Assembly: GCA_963799675.1 (NCBI GenBank)
Contig: CAWCXQ010000007.1
Location: 25,130 to 89,129, forward strand
DNA from: an uncultured Chloroflexia bacterium
GTDB lineage: Bacteria; Chloroflexota; Limnocylindria; QHBO01
Direction of reading: 5' to 3'
Length of the DNA stretch: 64,000 bases
Shown here: one piece after another, positions 2,094 to 64,000 of the stretch
Numbering within the stretch: the stretch's first letter is position 1
How the letters are laid out: each line of letters opens with the position of its first letter
Notes under the pieces: generated by a model
What the model was told of the DNA's origin: nothing
Database searches by the model: none
What the model saw: only the letters and a program-made list of their open reading frames with translations
Program-made: the position numbers and the translations under genes

Positions 2094-2525
2094 ATGCCGA
2101 AGGACGCACCAGGCCGCGAACGGGTCATCTTCCTCTGCACTCACAACAGCGCTCGGTCGCAGATGGCCGAGGGGATGCTGCGGGCATGGGCGCCCGCAAG
2201 GTTCGAGGCGTTCAGCGCGGGCACCGTCCGGACGGCGCTCCGGCCCGAAGCGGTCGACGCGATGCGGGAGATCGGGATCGATATCGCCTCGCAGCAGAGC
2301 AAGTCGATCGACCAGCTCGGCGGCCGCAGCTTCGACCGTCTCGTGACGGTCTGCGACGAGGCGAGGGAGGCCTGCCCGACGCTGCCCGGCGTGCGACGGC
2401 AGGAGCACTGGCAGATCGACGACCCGTCCGCGGTGGGTGGCAGCGCCGAGGAGCGGATGGCCGCCTTTCGCCGCGCCCGCGACGATCTCGCCGAGCGCGT
2501 TCGCGGTATCGCGGAGGGCGGCTAG
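2094..2525 (+). CDS. arsC: Arsenate reductase, thioredoxin-coupled LMW-PTP family
   Basis: P-loop FLCTHNSARSQMAEG and resolving cysteines VTVCDEAREACP. Confidence 0.88.
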   Translation: MPKDAPGRERVIFLCTHNSARSQMAEGMLRAWAPARFEAFSAGTVRTALRPEAVDAMREIGIDIASQQSKSIDQLGGRSFDRLVTVCDEAREACPTLPGVRRQEHWQIDDPSAVGGSAEERMAAFRRARDDLAERVRGIAEGG

Positions 2526-2529
2526 CGCC

Positions 2530-2554
2530 GGCGCCGCGCGGGACGACCGGCGCC
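2530..2554. terminator. GC hairpin between convergent arsC and the Cys-rich peptide gene
   Basis: ggcgccg(2530-36)/cggcgcc(2548-54) stem; no poly-U tract. Confidence 0.35.
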
Positions 2555-2569
2555 AGCCGGGGGTTCAGC

Positions 2570-2629
2570 TCAGCAGCAGCCGGTCCTGCAGCAGTCGCCG
2601 CAGCACTCGCAATCGCATTCGGATCGCAT
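2570..2629 (-). CDS. 19-aa cysteine-rich metallothionein/phytochelatin-like peptide MRSECDCECCGDCCRTGCC (not in the ORF track)
   Basis: ATG CGA TCC GAA TGC GAT TGC GAG TGC TGC GGC GAC TGC TGC AGG ACC GGC TGC TGC TGA; ideal SD AAAGGAGGTG (GGAGG 8 nt before ATG); divergent from arsR. Confidence 0.8.
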   Translation of the reverse strand: MRSECDCECCGDCCRTGCC

Positions 2630-2648
2630 CGCGCCCACCTCCTTTCCG

Positions 2649-2700
2649 CGCTACACTATATCGATCAGTGTCAATATAGACAATCGCTGATATAGTAGCG
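2649..2700. promoter_or_regulatory. ArsR/SmtB operator and divergent promoter region
   Basis: AT-rich imperfect palindrome cgcta..ctatatc..tgtc-aatata-gaca..gatatag..tagcg; TATAGT (2691-96) lies 7 nt before the arsR ATG. Confidence 0.7.
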
Positions 2701-2703
2701 GCG

Positions 2704-2991
2704 ATGAAGACCGCTGACCCCGACGTTCTCCTTCTCTCTGCGCTCGCCGATCCCACGCGCCTCGAGATCGTGCGGCAGCTCGCCGCCGGCGGCGCCTGCG
2801 CCTGCGACTTCACCGATTGCTGCGGCGTCAGCCAGCCGACCATCTCGCACCACCTGAAGGTCCTGCGCGACGCGGGCGTGGTGCAGAGCGAGCGGCGCGG
2901 CACGAACATCTACTACTCGCTGGCGCCCTCGGTCGGTGGACGGTTCGCGGCGATCGGGGCCAGCCTGGCGGGACTCGTCCACCTGGGCTGA
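2704..2991 (+). CDS. arsR: ArsR/SmtB family metalloregulator
   Basis: ALADPTRLEIV, alpha3 CACDFTDCC, SQPTISHHLKVLRDAG, RRGTNIYY. Confidence 0.92.
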   Translation: MKTADPDVLLLSALADPTRLEIVRQLAAGGACACDFTDCCGVSQPTISHHLKVLRDAGVVQSERRGTNIYYSLAPSVGGRFAAIGASLAGLVHLG

Positions 2992-3012
2992 TCGCGCGCT
3001 ACCCTTCGTGCG

Positions 3013-3516
3013 GTGAGCCTCACCGTCGCGTTGTGCCCGCACTGCGCGCGTCCGACCGAGCAGCCGTTGGTCTGCGCGCGGTGTGCGTGGCGCTGGTACG
3101 CGAATCCGAAGCCAGCCGCCGGAGTGATCCTCGAGCGAGATGGGTCGGTCCTCCTCCTGCGTCGGGCGGTCGAGCCCGGGATGGGCGCCTGGGACCTGCC
3201 GGCCGGATACCTGGATCCGGGGGAGTCCCCGGAGGAGGCTGCGCGGCGCGAGACGCGCGAGGAATCGGGCCTGGAGGTGGAGCTCGTGCGACTGGTGGGG
3301 GTCTACACCAGCCGCCCCGGCAACGCTGTCGCGTGCATCTACCTGGCGCGGCAGGTCGATCCATCGGCCGCGGTCCGGCTGGACGCAGAGTCGAGCGAGT
3401 ACGCATGGGTCGAGAGCGCACGGCTGCTCGACTGGCTGCCGCGGCTGGCATTCGGATCGATGGCCGCCGCGCTCTCCGACTGGCGCGCCAATCGGTCGGG
3501 TGAGCCGCAGTCCTGA
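3013..3516 (+). CDS. Zinc-ribbon Nudix hydrolase
   Basis: CPHC..CARC ribbon; Nudix box [22 protein letters not shown]. Confidence 0.88.
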
Positions 3517-3566
3517 GGCGCAATCGCGCTGCGCTACACTCGAAAATACCGCCCCACTGGAGAGAG

Positions 3567-4559
3567 ATGCCGGACTCCGACGTGAAGGTTGCCGTCACCG
3601 GCGCTGCCGGGCAGATCGGCTATGCGCTCCTCTTTCGGATCGCCTCGGGGCAGATGTTTGGCCCCGACGCGACGATCGATCTCCAGCTACTCGAGCTCGA
3701 GCAGGCACTGCCGGCCCTGGATGGGGTCCGGATGGAGCTCGAGGACTGCGCCTTTCCGCTGCTCGGCAGCGTGACCACCACGTCGGTTGCGGACGAAGCC
3801 TTCGAGGGCGCGAACTGGGCACTCCTGGTCGGCGCCGTGCCGCGCAAGGCCGGCATGGAGCGCAACGACCTGCTGACGATCAACGGCGGCATCTTCACGA
3901 GCCAGGGCAAAGCGATCGCCGCGCACGCGGCGGATGACGTCCGGGTCCTGGTGGTCGGCAATCCATGCAACACGAACTGCCTGATCGCCGCCGCAAATGC
4001 GCCCGCGCTTCCGCGCGAGCGCTGGTTCGCGATGACGATGCTCGACGAGAGCCGGGGTCGGACGCAGCTTGCCCGCAGGGCGGGATCCCCCGTGGGCGAC
4101 GTGCGCGACCTCGCCATCTGGGGCAACCACTCCAGCACCCAGTTTCCCGACGCCTACCACGCCACGATCGGCGGGCGCCCGGCGGCCGACGTGATCGGTG
4201 ACGAGGCCTGGCTGCGCGGCGACTTCATCACCAGCGTGCAGCAGCGTGGTGCGGAGATCATCAAGGCCCGCGGCCAGTCCAGTGCGGCCTCGGCCGCGAA
4301 CGCGATCATCGACACGGTGCGGAACGTCACCCAGCCGAGCGGCGAGATCTTCTCTGCCGCCATCCCCGCACCGGCCGATGGCGCCTACGGCGTGCCCGAG
4401 GGAATCGTGTTCGGCTTCCCGCTGCGCGCCGCGGCCGACGGCGCGGTCGAGATCGTGCAGGGAATCGAGCATGGGGACTGGGCCCGCAGCAAGATCGACA
4501 CGTCGCTCGCCGAGCTGCTCGAGGAGCGCGATGCCGTGCGCGAGCTGATCGCCCGATGA
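3567..4559 (+). CDS. mdh: Malate dehydrogenase
   Basis: [41 protein letters not shown]. Confidence 0.96.
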
Positions 4560-5866
4560 GCCACGAGATGCTGGTGCGCAGCGAGACAGTCACCATCGGT
4601 CTGGACGGCAAGCAGGTCGAGCTGCCGGTCGTGACCGGCACCGAGGGCGAGCGGGCCATGGAGATCGGCCAGCTGCGCGCCGAGACCGGCCTCGATCACG
4701 CTCGATCCGGGCTATCGGCAGCACCGGATCCTGCACGAGCGCGATCACCTATCTCGACGGAGAGCGCGGCATCCTGCGCTACCGGGGCTATCCGATCGAG
4801 CAGCTGGCAGAGCGCTCGAGCTTCCTGGAGGTCGCGTACCTGCTGATCTACGCGGAGCTGCCGACCAGGGCGGAGCTGGATCGGTTCACGGCGAACGTGA
4901 TCCATCACACCCTGATCCACGAAGAGATGCGCCGCTTCTTCGACAGCTTCCCGTACGACGCGCACCCGATGGCGGTGCTGGCGGCCGGCACGGTCGGCCT
5001 CTCCACCTTCTACCAGGACAGCCACGATCCATTCGACGATCAGGCGGTGGAGATCACCATCAACCGCCTCCTCGCCAAGCTGCCCACGCTGGCTGCGTGG
5101 GCCTACAAGAAGGCGATCGGCCAGCCCTACGTCTACCCACAGAACGACCTCGGCTATGCGGCCAACCTGCTGCACATGATGTTCGGCGTGCCGGCCGAGC
5201 CCTACGAGGCGGACCCCGAGGTCGCGCGCGCGCTCGATCTGCTCCTCATCCTGCACGCCGATCACGAGCAGAACTGCTCGGCCTCGACGGTGCGCATGGT
5301 GGGAAGCAGCCACGTCAACCTGTATGCCTCGATTTCGGCGGGGATCAGCGCCCTCTGGGGCCCGCTCCATGGCGGCGCCAACGAGGCGGTGATCAACACC
5401 CTGGAACGGATCGTGGCCGATGGCGGCAACGTTCAGAAGTACGTCGACCGCGCCAAGGACCCGAATGACTCGTTCCGCCTCGCCGGCTTCGGGCATCGGG
5501 TCTACAAGAACTTCGATCCGCGAGCGAAGATCATCAAGGCCGCCACGGATCGCGTCCTCGCCGCCACCGGGGCAGACGAAAAGCTCTTCGACGTGGCCCG
5601 GCGCCTGGAGGAGGTCGCGCTGCAGCGACGACTACTTCGTGGAGCGCAAGCTCTACCCGAATGTCGACTTCTACTCCGGGCTCATCTACCGGGCGATAGG
5701 GTTCCCCAAGAACATGTTCACGAACTGCTTCGCCATCGGCCGCCTGCCGGGGTGGATCGCGCAGTGGAAGGAGATGACAGAGTCGCACGAGACGCGCATC
5801 GCTCGGCCGCGCCAGATCTACACGGGCCCGACGGCGCGGGACTACACCACCATCGAGCAGCGCTGA
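4556..5866 (+). CDS. gltA: Citrate synthase (type II), split by indels near 4700 and 5625
   Basis: [38 protein letters not shown] and YPNVDFYSG appear across shifted frames. Confidence 0.93.
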
Positions 5867-54796: not shown

Positions 54797-56349
<1,553 letters not shown>

Positions 56350-56353
<4 letters not shown>

Positions 56354-57688
56354 GCGACGTTCGGGACCCTCGCCGACGCCCCCGCGAGCTTCGTCCTGCT
56401 CGGCGTGCGCACGATCGATCCCACGGCCGGCGCGGACCTCGTCCGCGACCTCGCGGTGCGCGAAGGCCGCATCGTCGAGCCGAGCGACGTCCCTGATGGA
56501 ATACGCCGCATCGAGGGCAGGGACCTCGTGGTGGCCCCGGGCTTCTGCGATCTGCACACGCACCTGCGGGAGCCCGGTGGCGAGGTGGCCGAGACTGTTG
56601 AGAGCGGAGCTCGGGCCGCCGCCCATGGGGGCTTCACGACCCTCTGCGCCATGCCGAATACGGAGCCGCCCCTCGATGAGCGGGCTCGGGTTGCCGCCGT
56701 GGCGGGGCGCTCGTCTGCGGCCCGCGTGCGCGTCGTCGCATCCGCCACCGCGGGACGCGCCGGTGAGCGGCTCACGGACTACGCAGAGCTGGCGGCGGAT
56801 GGCGTGGTGGGAGTGAGCGACGACGGGGCTGCGATCGCGGACCCAAGGCTGGCACGGAGCGCGCTCGCCTACCTCGGTGAGCTGGGCCTTCCATTGATCG
56901 AGCATGCGGAGGATCCTCGGCTCGCCGCGGGGACGCTCATGCGCGCAGGGCCAACCGCCACGCGCCTCGGCCTCGCGGGGTGGCCGCCCAGCGCCGAGCT
57001 CACGATGATCGAGCGTGATATCGCCCTGGCCGCCGAGACGGGCGGCTGGGTGCATTTCACGCATCTCTCGACCTCGAGCGGGCTCGACGCCGTGCGCCGT
57101 GCAAAGCAACGCGGCCTGCGCGTCACCTGCGACGTCACCCCGCATCACCTGGCACTGACCGATGCCTGGGTCGCCGGTCACCGCGCCTTCGCGTGGCAGG
57201 CGGAAGGAGAACCGGACTACGAGCGTGCCTACGACGGCGCCACCCGCGTCAATCCTCCACTGCCCAGCCGGGAAGACGCGCTCGCGCTGCTGGCGGGGCT
57301 GGCCGACGGCAGCATCGACGCCATCGCCACCGACCATGCCCCACATCCTCCCGAGCGCAAGCTGGTCGAGTTTTCGGAGGCGGCACCCGGCATCATCGGC
57401 CTGGAGTCGGCGCTCTCGCTCGGGCTGGCCGCGGTCGAGGCAGGCTGCCTGGAGCTCGGCAGGCTGGTCGAGGCGCTCTCGTCCGGACCCGCGGGGCTGA
57501 TCCGGGAGACGCGCGGCCTGGCCATGGGCGAGGTCGCCGACCTCGTCGTCTTCGATCCCGCCGCGCGCTGGCGGGTCGAGGCCGATGCCCTGGCCTCACG
57601 CTCCGCCAATACCCCGCTGATCGGCATGGAGCTGCCGGGCGTCGTGCGGCTGACCGTGGCGGACGGTCGAGTGACCTATGAAGCGTGA
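56350..57688 (+). CDS. pyrC: Dihydroorotase, indel near 56375
   Basis: DLHTHLREPG, MPNT, SDDG, EHAED, TPHH, NPPL, TDHAPH. Confidence 0.93.
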
Positions 57689-57748
57689 AGCGGTCCGATA
57701 TGGGACCATTCCGAGCGCCAGACCCGCCCGTTCGCCACGAGGGACCGA

Positions 57749-58081
57749 TTGTCGATCCGAACCAACGAGGAGCTCGACCCGAATGAGGGCCCAGGCTTCG
57801 GCTGCTTCGTCACCCAGGCGGTCCTCTTCGCGCTCATCCTGCTCCTCGTGCCGGTCGGCCTCTTCACATTTGGCTGGCCGGTCTGGTTCCTGGCGCTCCT
57901 CCTCTTCGTGGACATGGTCCTCCTGTTCTTCGTCAGCATGACCAGCGTCTTCCTGCTGCGCGTCTTCTTTGCCGACCGGCGGGGCGGACGGGGCCGAACC
58001 GTGGGCGCGACGCGTCCTCCCACCCGCATCATCAGCGGCGACGATGACCAGGGCGATGAGCAGCCGGAAGGGGGCGCCTGA
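57749..58081 (+). CDS. Hypothetical 2-TM membrane protein in the pyr operon
   Basis: Long hydrophobic core; stop overlaps the next start (TGATG). Confidence 0.6.
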   Translation: MSIRTNEELDPNEGPGFGCFVTQAVLFALILLLVPVGLFTFGWPVWFLALLLFVDMVLLFFVSMTSVFLLRVFFADRRGGRGRTVGATRPPTRIISGDDDQGDEQPEGGA

Positions 58082-58411
58082 TGCCGCTGATGGTGACCTT
58101 CTTCAACGTTCGAAAGGGTCGCGACGCCTTCTTCAAGCGAGGGATGCGCCACCTCTTTCCGCGGCCATGCACGGCGCTACGAGCGCGAGTACGGGATCCA
58201 TTTCGTGGGCTGGTTCAACGTGACGGAGGGCTCGGAGTGGGACAACGTCGTGATCCTCGACCTGCCCAACTACGCCGTCCTGGACCGCCTGTACGCCGAT
58301 CCCACCGCCCGCGGGCTGGGGCATCGCGTCGCGGAGTCGATCTTCGATCGCAAGCACACCATCTTCCTGCGCGAGCGCATGGGTCCGGACTTCGAGTACA
58401 AGCCCAGCTGA
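58081..58411 (+). CDS. Hypothetical protein of about 110 aa (possible dimeric alpha-beta barrel), indel near 58160
   Basis: Repaired frame ..YEREYGIHFVGWFNVTEGSEWDNVVILDLPNYAVLDRLY..; TGATG overlaps on both sides. Confidence 0.55.
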
Positions 58412-59243
58412 TGGCGTCCCCCGCCTCGTCCGCCCGTCTCACCGCGCTCCGGGAGCTCGCGGCAGACGCCGAGCTCGAACGACGGGACTTCCTGTACGAG
58501 GCGACCGAGCAGCTGCGTCGCTTCTTCGACGCGAATCGAGAGCGGCTGCGCGAGATCGGTCCCATCAAGCTCGCCGATGACGACCAGGACTACCTCGTCT
58601 ATCACCCCGTCGACGAGACGTGGACCACGCGCCTGACCTACCAGGATCCCGCCGACAGCGCGTGGTATGACGAGGAGCAGACGGTCGACTCGTTCAACGA
58701 GATCGCCGAGCTCTACAACCCGGCGGACATCTTCGCCTGGCTTCGTGGAGGCAGCCCGCAACCCGGTCGACCATCTCCTCGAGGCCGATAAGCTCGCGGC
58801 GGAGGAGCAGGTCCCGGACGAGGCCGGCGACGACTGGCAGGCCGAGCTGCCGCACTCACCAGCAGGAGACGCTCGCCGCGCAGCGCCTCTGGCAGCTGGC
58901 CGACGCGTTCCGTGGCCAGATCAGCGCGCAGCAGAAGCAGGTGCTGTGGGAGTTCGCGGCAGAGGCCGAGGAGGTGCTGCACCGGACAGGCGACCTGCCA
59001 CTGCTCGAGGAGCCGGACGATCTCCTCGTCCTTCGCGCCGACGGCCGCTTCGAGACCGGCCTCGACCTGACCGAGCTGACGGAGGCCGCGCGCCTCGAGC
59101 TCGAGCCGCATCGGGCCGGCCTGTCGGTCTGCGATGCGCGGACGATCGCCGAGTACTACGACCCGTCGGACGTGCTGCAGTGGGTGACCGACGCACTGAC
59201 CGAGCGCTATCCCGCGGTCGACTTCACCGCCGTCTACGAATAG
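58411..59243 (+). CDS. Acidic hypothetical protein with an internal two-domain duplication, indels near 58740 and 58860
   Basis: EIAELYNPADIFAWL vs TIAEYYDPSDVLQWV; IGPIKLADDDQDYLVY vs TGDLPLLEEPDDLLVL. Confidence 0.62.
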
Positions 59244-59247
59244 GCCG

Positions 59248-59826
59248 ATGCAGACCGCCGCCCGCATCGAGGAGATCTTCGAGCAGGCAGGTGCGCTGCG
59301 GGACGGCCACTTTCTGCTGAAGAGCGGGCGGCACTCCGGGCGCTACCTCGAGAAGTTCGCCGTGCTGCAGCACCCGAGCCTGGCGGTCGAGATCTGCAGG
59401 CGATTCGCGGCAGGCCCTGGCGCCCTTCTCCCCGACCGTCGTGGTCGGCCCGACCACGGGCGGCGTGCTGCTCGCCTTCGAGACGGCACGCCAGCTCGGG
59501 CGGCGGCGTGCGCGGCATCTTCGCGGAGCCGGTCGAGGGCGGCCGCCTCCTGCGCCGCGGCTGGAAGCTGTCGGCCGCCGATCGCGTGGTGCTGGTGGAC
59601 GACATCCTGACCACCGGCGCCTCGCTGCTGGAGACCGCCGACGCGGTCCGTGGGGCGGGCGCTCGAGCCGCTCGCCGCGAGCGTGATCGTCGACCGCTCG
59701 ACGGCGCCGATCGAGGCCGCCTTTCCGATCATCTCCCTCGGGACGATCGAGATCCCCACCTGGCCCGCAGCCGACTGCCCGCTGTGTGCCACCGGCGCGG
59801 CGATCACGAGGCCCGGAAGCAGCTAG
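59248..59826 (+). CDS. pyrE: Orotate phosphoribosyltransferase, indels
   Basis: GHFLLKSGRHS, VGPTTGG, LVDDILTTGAS, CPLC. Confidence 0.9.
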
Positions 59827-60714
59827 TCCTCCAGCCCGGGCCGGCGCCGATCCCCTCGCCGGGTCGGACGCGCCGCTGCTCCACGGGGACGGGCTCTTCC
59901 CAGGTGATCTCGGAGATGCGCGCCGGGGGGTATGCGCCGTCCGGCGGGACGATCCCCTCCTCGGCCTCGAGCGGAATGCCGATCGGCGCCACGAAGTAGC
60001 GACCGGCCAGGCGGCGCGCCTCTCGGTCGAGCGCGAAGCCGGCCTTCGCGCGGTGGAAGCTGACCGTCAGGTCGGCCTCGACCACGGGATCAGAGCGCGA
60101 GCCGTTTGTCATGTCGATCCGCGTCGGGCGTGTCGACCGCCAGCACGCTGCAGGCCCGGCCGGCCGCGAGCGCATGGGTTCGAATCGCGTTCAGCAGGTC
60201 GACCGCGGTGGAGATCGGCTCGCGCAGCGGGCCGCTGGCACCGCTTCCCAGCAAGGCGTCGACCAGCAGGGTCGCCGGGGAGAGGCGTGGCCGGAGCACC
60301 AGCAGCATGTCGGGAGTGGGCGCGACGAAGAGCTCGACGCGAGCCGCCGGCGGCCATCGCCTGGAGAACCGTCCAGTTGTGCGCGGCGGCCGGGCCGCTG
60401 ATCGGGCCCGCATCGCCCACCAGGACGGCCAGCACGCGAGCTCCCGTGGCGGCCAGGCGGCGAGCGACGACGAGGCCGTCGCCGCCGTTGTTGCCCGGGC
60501 CGCAGAGGACCACGGTCAGCGGCGCCTCGTCGGTCGGCGCGGCGAGCCGGGCCAGCTCGACCTGTGCGACCTCGGCAACCGCGGTCCCGGCGCTCTCCAT
60601 GAGCGCGTCTGCGGTGACCCCCAGCCGCTGCGCCGCCTGATCGATCTCGGCCATCTCGGCCGCGCCAATGAGGACCGGCCGGGCCCGTGCCGGCCGGTCG
60701 GCCGCATCGGTCAA
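59804..60714 (-). CDS. nnrE: NAD(P)H-hydrate epimerase (stand-alone YjeF-N), indels
   Basis: LMESAG, CGPGNNGGDG, VDALLGSG, AVDTP, TVSFHRAK, APIGIP. Confidence 0.85.
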
Positions 60715-61181
60715 AGCGTCTTCAGGTACTCGGCGATCGTGTTGATCTCGGCCGGGCTGAGCTGACCGCCGAAGACCGGCATCGCCTTGCGGTCGATGCT
60801 CTTCACGGCCGGGTCGGTCCCGGCGATCCAGAGCTGGATCCAGTCGTCCGGGTGGTCGGTGCCGAGCTTCCCGAGGTCCGGGGTCACCGGGCCCTTGGCG
60901 ACCCCATGCAGGTCCGGACCGATGCCGCCGCTGAAATCCTGGCCGTGGCACGCCTGGCAGTTAGCCTTCTTGATGATGGCCAGCGCGGCCCCGGCGTCGA
61001 CCGCCGCGGAAGCACCCGGGCTGCCAGAGCCGCTGGGTGCAGGTCCGGCCAGCGCGGGATTCTCGCCCGACAGGTTCGAGGCGAGATAGAACCCCCCGAC
61101 GAAGAGCACGAAGACGGTCAGGACGGCCGCCCACGCGGGGACGCGGCCGGATCGGGCCTCGATCGGCGTGTGGATGGTCAC
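60711..61181 (-). CDS. Membrane-anchored monoheme cytochrome c
   Basis: N-terminal TM helix, CQACHG, GGIGPDL, distal Met in KAMPVF. Confidence 0.9.
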   Translation of the reverse strand: MTIHTPIEARSGRVPAWAAVLTVFVLFVGGFYLASNLSGENPALAGPAPSGSGSPGASAAVDAGAALAIIKKANCQACHGQDFSGGIGPDLHGVAKGPVTPDLGKLGTDHPDDWIQLWIAGTDPAVKSIDRKAMPVFGGQLSPAEINTIAEYLKTL

Positions 61182-62654
61182 GCTTCGGTGGCCGCCGGCA
61201 GGATCGGCTGCGCCTGCGGTACCGCGTAGCTGGCGGGGCGTGCGCTGGTGTACATCAGGAACATGCTCCCCAGCAGCGCAAGGCCGGCGACCGCCCAGAG
61301 ACCGAGACCGCCGGCGGCGGCCATGCGAAACGGCAGCAGGGTGGCGTCGATCTGGTCAGCGGGAGCCGATTGGGTGAAGAGGGAGCCCTGGGCCAGGCCT
61401 CGCGCCCATCAGTGCCAGCCCGGCGATCGCCGCTCCGGCGAAGGCGGTCCACAGCTCCGCGGCGCTCAAGAGGCCACCACCCCACTCTCGCCGTAGCAGG
61501 CGCGGCAGCGCGTACTCGGCAAAGCTGAGCATCGCGAGCGAGTAGGCACCGAGCGCCGCGTAGATGAATGCTCCGGCGATCCACTCGGTCTGGTCCACCA
61601 GGACCTGGACCGAGCGCAATGCCCCGATTCCCTGCAGCAGCGCGGTGGCCATCAGGAAGGCGAGCGAGACGATGGCAAAGGGCAGCGGCCCGGCGCTCAG
61701 GAGGAGGCCCCAGCGGCCGCGCACCGTGAGCAGCAGGTTGGCAACCACGATGAACGCCGGTGCGAGCATCAACAGGCTGGCGACCACGCCCAGGGTGGTC
61801 ACCAGGTACGGGACCGAAGGGTCGACCAGCGAGGCGAGGCCAGAGGCTCCGGCAAAGAGCAGCCATGCCGCCCATCCCAGCAGCGCCAGGCCCGTGCTGT
61901 AGAGGGGGTTGTCGGTCTCGCGCGGGATGACGTAATAGAGGGTTCCGAGCGCGACGCCCAGCAGCCAATAGCCCTCGATGGCGCGCTCCAGGAAGACCGA
62001 TGCCAGCAGCTCGGTCTTCTCGGGCAGGTCCACGACGCCGAGCCCTACGTTCGCCGCCAGGACGCCGAGCAGCGCGAGCAGCGCGATCGCGAAGTACCAG
62101 CTGCTGATGTAGCGGCTTCCGCGCGTCGGATCACCCTCGGTACCGATGAAGGCTCCGGCGGCAATCAGCACCCCGAGCAACATCGCCCCGGTGACCGGCA
62201 GCGGGAAGACCGAGAGGCCGGTAACGGCGGGAAGCTTCGCGACGTAGATCCAGGCGATCCCTCCGAGGACGGCGAGGTTCAGGAGCAGCAGCCCGAGGAT
62301 GGCCATCCGCTCCATGAACAGCCTCCTCCCCGTCAGGCGCGCGGTGACGAAGAAGATGGCGCCAATCCCTGCGTTCGTCAGCCAGCCGTAGACGACCGCG
62401 TTCAGGAACGCGAGCTGCGCCCGCTCTGCGTCGACCTGGACCTTCGCGTCGCCGATCAGCGGCAGGCTGAAGGAGACGTTGGGGAAGATCCGAAGCCCGA
62501 CCGCCAGCAGGCCGATTCCGCCGGCCAGCGCGAACCAGAGCGCCGCAAAGACCAGGAATCCGATGGCGGCGCTTCCCGGCGAGCCGGGGACGAGGCCACG
62601 TCGGCGTCTGGGCGGTTCGTCGTACGGCCGCAGCTTCTTGGGGTTGGCGATCAT
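61178..62654 (-). CDS. cbb3-type oxidase subunit I (CcoN)-like membrane protein lacking all His ligands, indel near 61400
   Basis: YISSWYF, GTLYYVIPRETDNPLYS, LLLAP-like, VSLAF and TEWIAG match the CcoN scaffold; no His residue in the reconstructed protein; GTGA overlap with the cytochrome c gene. Confidence 0.75.
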
Positions 62655-62783
62655 GGTCGCGCGCAGACCCTCGCGAGATACGGAAGGGGAGCCGGCCGAA
62701 TTGTACCGAACGGATTCGAAGATGACGCCGCACTTGTGCGACCTTCTTGACGAGCGCATCCCGGGCGACACATAGTTAATGCA

Positions 62784-63281
62784 GTGTTGAATATCAATGC
62801 GTCGTTAACCGATGCGACCGAGACGGACGCGCTGGTCCGCGAGATCGTCGAGGGCATGGCATCGGCGCGCTCAGCACCCGGGCGCCAGGAGTTCCGCCGC
62901 CTGATCACCCAGTCGGTCAGCATGTCCCACATGCACGTCCTCGCCACGCTGCGCGAGGGGGGTCCCCTGCCGGTCAGCCGGCTGGCCAATGCGCTCGACG
63001 TCTCGGTCGCGAGCGCCACCGGCATCGTCAACCGGATGGAGGACCGCGGGCTCGTCGAGCGGTCACGCGACGAAGCGGATCGGCGAATCGTGACCGTGAG
63101 CCTGAGCGAAGACGGTCGGCGCGTGATGGATGAGATCGACGCGCGCGCGCAGGGCTTCTTCGCCCGGGTCCTGCGAGAGCTGACGGCCGACGAGCTGCTG
63201 CAGCTGCGGAACGGCATGCGGGCGCTGCATCGGGCCGGCGAGAGGCTGGCCGGGGAGATTCACGAAGGAAACGGGGCATGA
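62784..63281 (+). CDS. MarR family transcriptional regulator
   Basis: ATGIVNRMEDRGLVERSRDEADRR; TTGACG-N18-CATAGT promoter and TTGA-ATA-TCAA dyad (62787-97). Confidence 0.9.
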   Translation: MLNINASLTDATETDALVREIVEGMASARSAPGRQEFRRLITQSVSMSHMHVLATLREGGPLPVSRLANALDVSVASATGIVNRMEDRGLVERSRDEADRRIVTVSLSEDGRRVMDEIDARAQGFFARVLRELTADELLQLRNGMRALHRAGERLAGEIHEGNGA

Positions 63282-64000
63282 ACGAACAAGCGGTCATCTC
63301 GGTGCACGGCCTGCGGAAGACCTTCGGCAAGATCGAAGCGGTCCGCGGCATCGACCTCGAGGTCCGCCCCGGCGAGATCTTCGGCTTCCTGGGACCAAAT
63401 GGCGCGGGCAAGACGACGACCATCAGCATCCTGTGCACGCTGCTGAAAGCCACCTCCGGCAGCGCCAGCGTGGCGGGCCTCGACGTCGGATGCCGACCCG
63501 GCCGCCGTGCGGGCGCGGATCGGCCTCGTCTTCCAGGACCCCTCGCTCGACCAGCAGCTGACGGCGCGCGAGAACCTCGAGTTCCACGCCTTCATCTATG
63601 ACGTCCCCGCCGGCTTGCGCAAGGCCCGGATCGACGAGGTGCTCGAGATGGTCGAGCTCGCGGATCGCGCCGACGCGCCGGTGCAGACCTTCTCGGGTGG
63701 GATGCGGCGGCGCCTCGAGATCGCCCGCGGGATCCTGCACACCCCCGACGTGCTGTTCCTCGACGAGCCGACGATCGGGCTCGACCCGCAGACCCGGCGC
63801 CATATCTGGGCCTACCTGAGCGATCTGCCCAAGCGAGCGGGAGTCACGATCTTCATGACGACTCACTACATGGACGAGGCGGAGTACTGCGACCGGATCG
63901 CGATCATCGATCACGGCGAGATCCAGGCGATCGGGACGCCCGATGAGCTGAAGTCGATGGTGGGCGGTGACGTGGTGACCATCACCACCGGCCGACAACG
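63278..64000 (+). CDS. ABC exporter ATP-binding subunit (DrrA-like), indel near 63490, runs off the window end
   Basis: GPNGAGKTT, FSGGMRRRLEI, LFLDEPTIGLD, TTHYMDEAE. Confidence 0.9.

Follow-up and report, generated by a model that had tools for sequence, protein, structure and literature searches.

A full-length CcoN descendant without cofactor ligands, paired with a membrane-anchored cytochrome c in one family of Limnocylindria (Chloroflexota)

The DNA analysed here is a 64,000-nucleotide window of contig CAWCXQ010000007.1 (assembly GCA_963799675.1) from a soil or freshwater bacterium of the Chloroflexota. On its minus strand lie two adjoining genes, one for a CcoN-like protein, a homologue of subunit I of the C-family haem-copper oxidases (61178–62654), and one for a membrane-anchored cytochrome c (60711–61181). 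The CcoN-like open reading frame starts at ATG 62654 and its protein begins MIANPKKLRPYD; with a single extra base at 61400 skipped, it encodes 491 amino acids, the length of nearly all homologues, with 12 transmembrane helices and neither a histidine nor a cysteine. Its stop codon, TGA 61180–61178, overlaps the GTG start of the cytochrome c gene at 61181 by 4 nucleotides (GTGA), and the cytochrome c gene is translationally coupled to the CcoN-like gene. A preliminary description, made from the letters of this DNA, had reported a histidine-free membrane protein of about 490 residues overlapping a CxxCH gene in an intact, long frame. The length, the absence of histidine and the overlap are borne out; the intact frame is not, for a one-base break at 61400 had been read through without mention.

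As assembled, the CcoN-like frame reaches a stop at 61356 after 432 codons, 175 nucleotides before the cytochrome c gene, and its out-of-frame tail contains one histidine. Three-frame translation places the last transmembrane helix and the C-terminus in another frame, the one that ends at TGA 61180–61178. DNA alignment with a 91%-identical orthologue (locus L010) sets GCG-A-GGC in the window against GCG-GGC, that is, one extra base (A on the coding strand) at about 61400, whose exact place within GCGAGG is ambiguous, and beyond the shift the C-terminal part is still 90% conserved in frame. Comparison by tblastn with proteins of related contigs revealed further frameshifts in the window: one in pyrB, two in the YjeF_N gene, three in a phosphoribosyltransferase gene, two in a gene for a 273-residue protein and one in an ATP-binding cassette (ABC) ATPase gene. 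The CcoN-like gene, by comparison, has one open frame over the whole profile in nearly all matches from 64 related genomes. Because between one and three frameshifts interrupt each of the neighbouring housekeeping genes, and the relatives have a single open 491-residue frame, the extra base at 61400 is best read as an assembly indel. A second COX1 gene, on another contig (C11:328427–329760), is also split between frames, as is a second ABC ATPase gene; single-base indels are numerous throughout the assembly, with these examples from window 55417–60714 and C11. The source genome consists of 19 contigs only, yet has a completeness score of 65%, which is consistent with an indel-prone assembly; indels may be the cause of the low completeness. 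Any call of a "pseudogene" or "truncated gene" in this genome needs prior comparison with relatives.

Searches by sequence and by structure agree on the ancestry of the CcoN-like protein. Pfam COX1 matches it over profile positions 2–399 (E 1.2e-22), and the NCBIfam equivalog for ccoN, TIGR00780, scores it at 85.2 bits, far under the 583-bit cut-off. A phmmer search of PDB sequences, with a 96%-identical relative of the window protein (P0003) as query, returned end-to-end alignments with CcoN of Pseudomonas aeruginosa, Pseudomonas stutzeri and others (3MK7, 8SMR, 9G6B; E ~1e-15). An AlphaFold2 model built from 119 family sequences has twelve long helices, with a predicted local distance difference test score (pLDDT) of 90 and a predicted template-modelling score (pTM) of 0.90. 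Foldseek placed CcoN first among its matches to this model (8SMR, 3MK7, 9G83, 6XKW; TM-score 0.80–0.88, E ~1e-17), followed by NorB (E ~1e-9) and then by A- and B-family subunits. The proposed homology to haem-copper oxidase subunit I is thus confirmed: the protein descends from CcoN, which performs catalysis in the cbb3-type oxidases, and retains its full length and all 12 helices.

The active site of this descendant has been emptied. In the family alignment, not one of the 119 members has a histidine at any of the six ligand columns; the caveat raised in the preliminary description, that orthologues might keep the histidine ligands, therefore falls away, and the motif substitutions it had listed against CcoN are visible in the phmmer alignment with the CcoN structures. 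In the numbering of P. stutzeri CcoN, the haem b ligand His60 is replaced by Phe83 (codon 62406–62408, minus strand), invariant in the 119 family sequences, and the CuB and cross-link ligand His207 by Arg224 (codon 61983–61985, minus strand), found in 115 of them. Small residues take the place of the CuB ligands His257 and His258 across the Limnocylindria family, Val or Ala that of the haem b3 ligand His345, and Leu, Val or Ile that of the second haem b ligand, His347. The cross-link tyrosine of helix 7, Tyr251, has become Phe in the clade of the window; of 10 family representatives compared at this position, the majority have Leu. The only well-conserved histidine of the family, H381, aligns with a non-ligand histidine of CcoN and is Tyr in the window clade; another common histidine lies in the C-terminal tail.

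Residues outside the cofactor sites have fared differently. We take T215, S240 and H243, in the numbering of the 3MK7 paper, to be positions of the cbb3 proton pathway; in our reading of the phmmer alignment, the residues aligned with them in the CcoN-like protein are Leu, Ala and Gly. The majority of family-invariant residues, on the other hand, are scaffold residues conserved in canonical CcoN too, and those held in common include W40, R106, N126, Y182, Y241, P244, N306, T356, P384 and G407. Specific to the family are Phe83, Arg224, Trp264 and Asp278, the cytoplasmic N-terminal P10-Y11-D12...P15 and a C-terminal FLxYT. Because all ligands of haem b, haem b3 and CuB as well as the cross-link tyrosine are replaced, and the proton pathway is partly lost, the protein is predicted to be unable to reduce O2 or NO.

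The partner cytochrome has 156 residues. Its model comprises a transmembrane helix (residues 16–38), a disordered or flexible linker and a class I haem domain (63–155), and Pfam recognises it through PF13442 (E 3e-10) and PF00034 (E 5e-8). The haem c attachment motif CQACH occupies residues 75–79 (60945–60959, minus strand), and 66 homologues share its Cys75, Cys78 and His79 without exception. These also keep the Met134-Pro135 motif (Met134 codon 60780–60782, minus strand), in which Met134 is the presumed sixth haem ligand, along with residues of the N-terminal tail, of the transmembrane helix and of a juxtamembrane ASNLxGENP segment. Judging by its CxxCH motif, distal methionine and all-alpha fold, we classify the partner as a class I c-type cytochrome that is predicted to bind haem. 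Its identity as CcoO or CcoP was sought by sequence and fold searches, which returned generic class I cytochromes alone. Descent from CcoO is nevertheless plausible, since hhalign pairs the partner with the FixO-type protein that follows a histidine-less CcoN in a sister group (L026) over 116 columns with 95% probability (E 4.5e-8).

To determine how widely the module is distributed, we used a profile of the CcoN-like family to search 201 genomes of the class at a cut-off of E <= 1e-40. The gene is present in 65 of the 67 genomes of the window's GTDB family, covering 15 of 16 genera, without internal stops and in single copy in most carriers, and is absent at this cut-off from all 134 genomes of other families of the class. 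It is therefore conserved throughout one family of Limnocylindria, the class being assigned by the names of nearest homologues. A word-index protein search yielded at least 318 relatives. The ratio of nonsynonymous to synonymous substitution rates (dN/dS) is 0.13 against the nearest orthologue and 0.18–0.21 for other close pairs; only close pairs were used, and the values for distant pairs (0.4–0.6) were set aside because their dS is saturated. With 65 of 67 genomes holding an unbroken copy, these ratios show that the gene is kept under purifying selection and is not decaying, in keeping with the earlier suggestion of repurposing.

The cytochrome c gene follows the same distribution. Its profile matches exactly the same 65 genomes, at adjacent coordinates, with no match in the same two family members or in any of the 134 genomes from other families. 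At each of the 17 loci examined (the window, L005, L006, L008, L010 and L014–L025), it stands directly downstream of the CcoN-like gene, overlapping it or 0–15 nucleotides away. The two genes have been gained and lost together, and the linkage raised in the preliminary description is complete among these loci. In a few genomes the pair occurs twice. The second copy in G045 (C4:265915–267536) is partial and may be a decaying duplicate; G111 (C33, C125) has two full copies. In genus g4 (G012, G084, G114, G117, G138), the cytochrome matches the family profile only from position ~38–48 onward, its N-terminal tail and its anchor being either divergent or exchanged for others.

Upstream of the module, a 129-bp intergenic region (62655–62783), presumed to contain the promoter, separates it from a divergent gene for a MarR-type regulator (62784–63281, plus strand). 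This is followed by a gene for a DrrA-like ABC ATPase, frameshifted in the window, the two together occupying 62784–64000 on the plus strand; L010, the closest relative, shares this arrangement, which more distant relatives lack. Directly downstream of the cytochrome c gene lies a gene of the YjeF_N (NAD(P)HX epimerase) family (59891–60714, minus strand), with two assembly frameshifts in the window. It occupies this position at all 17 loci (9942–10796 in L005), in some with a stop/start overlap, and at 71–78% identity across the family its product is more conserved than the CcoN-like protein; its position may reflect a functional link or merely inherited gene order. No ccoP, ccoQ or ccoGHIS assembly genes occur near the CcoN-like gene in the window, and no CcoP or ccoGHIS genes in the neighbourhoods of four relatives.

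The rest of the genome was surveyed for other components of the respiratory chain. It has two A-family COX1/COX2 loci, and the COX1 copy on C19, with COX3 behind it, retains the full set of canonical motifs (STHG, SHPAVY, WAHHMF, AHFHY), which answers the question of whether an intact oxidase exists beyond the window. No canonical cbb3 oxidase gene turned up, and the CcoN-like gene is the only C-family-like COX1 match in the genome. Since canonical aa3-type (A-family) oxidase genes exist elsewhere, the host is predicted to be an aerobe with ordinary oxidases, in which the CcoN-like protein is an extra component. The genome's sole cytochrome b gene, 46 kb away, is followed by one for a transmembrane-anchored dihaem cytochrome c (CAQCH, CASCH) resembling actinobacterial QcrC (C7:131121–134344; frameshifted), and one more membrane protein has a C-terminal cytochrome c domain. 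These cytochromes were identified by hidden Markov model matches; a raw CxxCH scan was set aside because its 48 frames are mostly chance occurrences in a genome of 70% G+C. In L005, a cupredoxin–Rieske–cytochrome b cluster (2455–4609) under a two-component system lies 3.4 kb upstream of the CcoN-like gene; it has no counterpart in L006, L008, L010 or the window, and linkage to complex III in the Limnocylindria family was rejected.

The Limnocylindria proteins are part of a wider set. When 1.84 billion cluster representatives were searched with a profile, 1088 matched at E <= 0.001, and from these the 114 full-length representatives closest to the Limnocylindria family were aligned, a sample biased towards histidine-less sequences by the query. 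All six histidines are present in 26 of them and some in 36; at least one ligand is missing from 88, and all six from 52, including 42 outside the Limnocylindria family. In a quick FastTree tree, to be read with caution, the Limnocylindria family is monophyletic (support 100) and nests in a 26-member clade without any ligand histidine (support 97) that includes an Acidimicrobiia group. Because the family sits inside this larger clade, loss of the cofactors appears to predate it.

Other members of this 26-member clade come with a variety of neighbours. L026 (88–7847, 12297–13371), which the quick tree places as sister to the Limnocylindria family, has a histidine-less COX1 homologue and a 150-residue FixO-type cytochrome, divergent beside a complete ccmABCDEF set, with the haem A synthesis genes ctaA and ctaB ~5 kb downstream. 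In L011, a histidine-less COX1 homologue and a FixO protein adjoin complex I genes, and in L027, an Acidimicrobiia CcoN-O-P-like trio is divergent from a Rieske/cytochrome b cluster. A 694-residue histidine-less COX1 homologue that ends in a fused cupredoxin domain is encoded in L012 (5020–8172), flanked on one side by the cytochrome c maturation genes resB/ccsA and on the other by a COX2–cytochrome c gene.

An earlier description of such proteins was not found in the literature searched, which did not extend to subscription journals. The classifier of Sousa et al. 2011 (PMC3084760) discarded sequences that lack the six histidines, and Murali et al. 2024 (PMC11214002) describe these histidines as completely conserved in all families except gNOR, where one is replaced by Asp, and gNOR as the first family in which an active-site histidine is exchanged. 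The superfamily is taken to be defined by the invariance of these six residues. Together, these alignments point to a redox-dead branch of the haem-copper oxidases, here a distinct Chloroflexota clade, within a large radiation undescribed in the literature searched.

What might such a pair do? The reading we favour, to which we give about an even chance, is that the CcoN-like protein and the cytochrome c form a heterodimer resembling CcoN/CcoO, in which the redox-dead 12-helix body would carry the cytochrome, fix its position on the outer side of the membrane and perhaps link it to other respiratory complexes. Such a pair would act as a membrane-bound one-electron relay and not as an enzyme, and the bulky or charged residues specific to the family, Phe83, Arg224 and Trp264, would probably fill the old cofactor pockets and keep the fold stable. 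The absence of ligands from all 119 members and the exact match between the occurrence of the two genes support the earlier proposal of a cofactor-less oxidase fold working with the cytochrome. Our reading also draws on the retained CcoN fold, the profile match of the cytochrome to a FixO-type partner, the c-type cytochrome or cupredoxin partners of related histidine-less clades and the canonical A-family oxidase gene elsewhere in the genome. Several observations weigh against our reading. The cytochrome has a transmembrane anchor of its own, so a 12-helix scaffold is not obviously needed; it has no Pfam match to FixO (PF02433), and its model matches cytochrome c6, cytochrome c553 and the c domain of cd1 nitrite reductase, a generic class I fold. 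An extra relay between complex III and the aa3-type oxidase is not required, since a dihaem QcrC-like cytochrome is already encoded behind the genome's cytochrome b gene, 46 kb away. Finally, a purely periplasmic scaffold role falls short because it leaves unexplained the strongly conserved cytoplasmic motifs NPKKLRPYD, at the N-terminus of the CcoN-like protein, and MTVHTPIE, at that of the cytochrome.

Among the alternatives, that of a decaying pseudogene of a former cbb3 oxidase, with a genuine frameshift at 61400, is scarcely credible: the frame is broken as assembled, but the gene is unbroken in 65 of 67 related genomes with low dN/dS, the part beyond the shift is still conserved in frame, and essential genes such as pyrB carry frameshifts too. 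It is also highly improbable that haem or metal is still bound through ligands other than histidine and some redox chemistry kept. Tyr, Met and Lys ligate haem in other proteins, and Y182, Y241 and Y468 are invariant here; these tyrosines, however, sit at cytoplasmic helix ends and are common to CcoN, Phe, Arg, Ala, Val, Leu or Ile stand in the ligand columns, and Cys is absent from the window copy, as are conserved Met and Lys residues. The emptied fold might instead serve as an ion or proton channel or a small-molecule transporter, with the cytochrome c as its regulator or as an unrelated operon partner. Cofactor loss could leave cavities, and polar or charged residues within the membrane are conserved (N94, N126, R224, N306, Y182, Y241). 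We nonetheless consider a channel unlikely: canonical CcoN conserves most of them as well, which marks them as inherited scaffold, the proton-pathway positions now hold Leu, Ala and Gly, the family-specific changes F83 and W264 are bulky pocket fillers, and strict co-inheritance with a haem protein would go unexplained.

Two further possibilities draw on the neighbours of related clades. The protein could assist the biogenesis of c-type cytochromes or of the true haem-copper oxidases, as an assembly factor or chaperone that holds, for instance, haem, copper or an apo-subunit; histidine-less CcoN relatives do lie beside ccmABCDEF and ctaA/ctaB in L026, and beside resB/ccsA and the COX2–cytochrome c gene in L012. 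Such neighbours are missing from the Limnocylindria loci, no His, Cys or Met by which haem or copper could be bound transiently is conserved in the protein, and full 12-helix copies of a client are rarely kept as assembly factors, which makes this role distinctly unlikely. In a minimal quinol:cytochrome c oxidoreductase, by contrast, the membrane subunit would bind quinol near the outer face and pass electrons directly to haem c, by analogy with the cofactor-less quinol-binding subunits of NrfD/ActC type. A redox partner fixed beside the membrane subunit, conserved outer-side residues (D278, P282, T356, W358, G361) and the complex III-type genes adjoining another histidine-less clade (L027) speak for it; T356, W358 and G361 are inherited from CcoN, however, no quinone-site motif was identified in the CcoN-like protein, and quinol oxidation releases two electrons, for which a lone haem that takes up one is poorly suited. 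We regard this reading as very unlikely.

Beyond the Limnocylindria pair, we propose, more tentatively than for the dimer itself and at somewhat below even chance, that cofactor-less CcoN shells with c-type cytochromes constitute a widespread and unrecognised non-catalytic module of bacterial and archaeal respiratory chains. If so, the module would position cytochromes c or tether them to enzymes of the complex III and aa3 types, and the two-subunit Limnocylindria pair, which is not linked to complex III, would represent its extreme of reduction. Many "cbb3 oxidase" calls in metagenomes would then be wrong, and a new type of respiratory subunit would await biochemical definition. The naming of these proteins already has practical consequences: NCBI and JGI call them "cbb3-type cytochrome c oxidase subunit I", so that these abundant Chloroflexota would count in marker-gene surveys as possessors of a microaerobic oxidase of high affinity, which they cannot be. 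The conserved two-gene module, with its combination of dead oxidase body and live haem c, also raises the question of what use the 12-helix oxidase fold has without its chemistry.

The closest known system is CcoN/FixN itself (P. stutzeri 3MK7/5DJQ, P. aeruginosa 8SMR, Rhodobacter capsulatus 6XKW). The CcoN-like protein resembles it in its 12-helix fold, in sequence over the full length and in the scaffold motifs YYxxP...PxYS, TxWxxG and PR...R, and the order of the genes is the same, subunit I being followed by a transmembrane-anchored monohaem cytochrome c; what sets canonical CcoN apart is its six histidine ligands, cross-link tyrosine and full proton pathway. Like the Limnocylindria pair, the cytochrome c-dependent nitric oxide reductases (cNOR) have a cytochrome c as second subunit. 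Their NorB (3O0R, 4XYD) and the newer nitric oxide reductases (eNOR, gNOR and others; PMC11214002) share superfamily and fold with the CcoN-like protein, for which NorB is the second-best structural match (E ~1e-9). In nitric oxide reductases the haem ligands persist, as do most if not all of the metal ligands, whereas the CcoN-like protein keeps none; it has neither the haem ligands nor the three-His/Glu FeB site of NorB, and its fold is less similar to NorB than to CcoN.

The NrfD/ActC-type subunits of alternative complex III are large, polytopic and cofactor-less, and work with periplasmic haem proteins. Their fold and ancestry are unrelated to those of the CcoN-like protein, for which quinol binding is conjectural. 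Further parallels are the histidine-less clades of L011, L026 and L027, which show the same loss of ligands and have c-type cytochrome partners as in Limnocylindria. The partners in these related clades are recognisably of FixO type, whereas the 156-residue Limnocylindria partner is tied to FixO by profile comparison only. Unlike the Acidimicrobiia proteins of L027, encoded beside Rieske and cytochrome b genes, the Limnocylindria family has no complex III neighbour, and it carries a conserved cytoplasmic N-terminal motif of its own.

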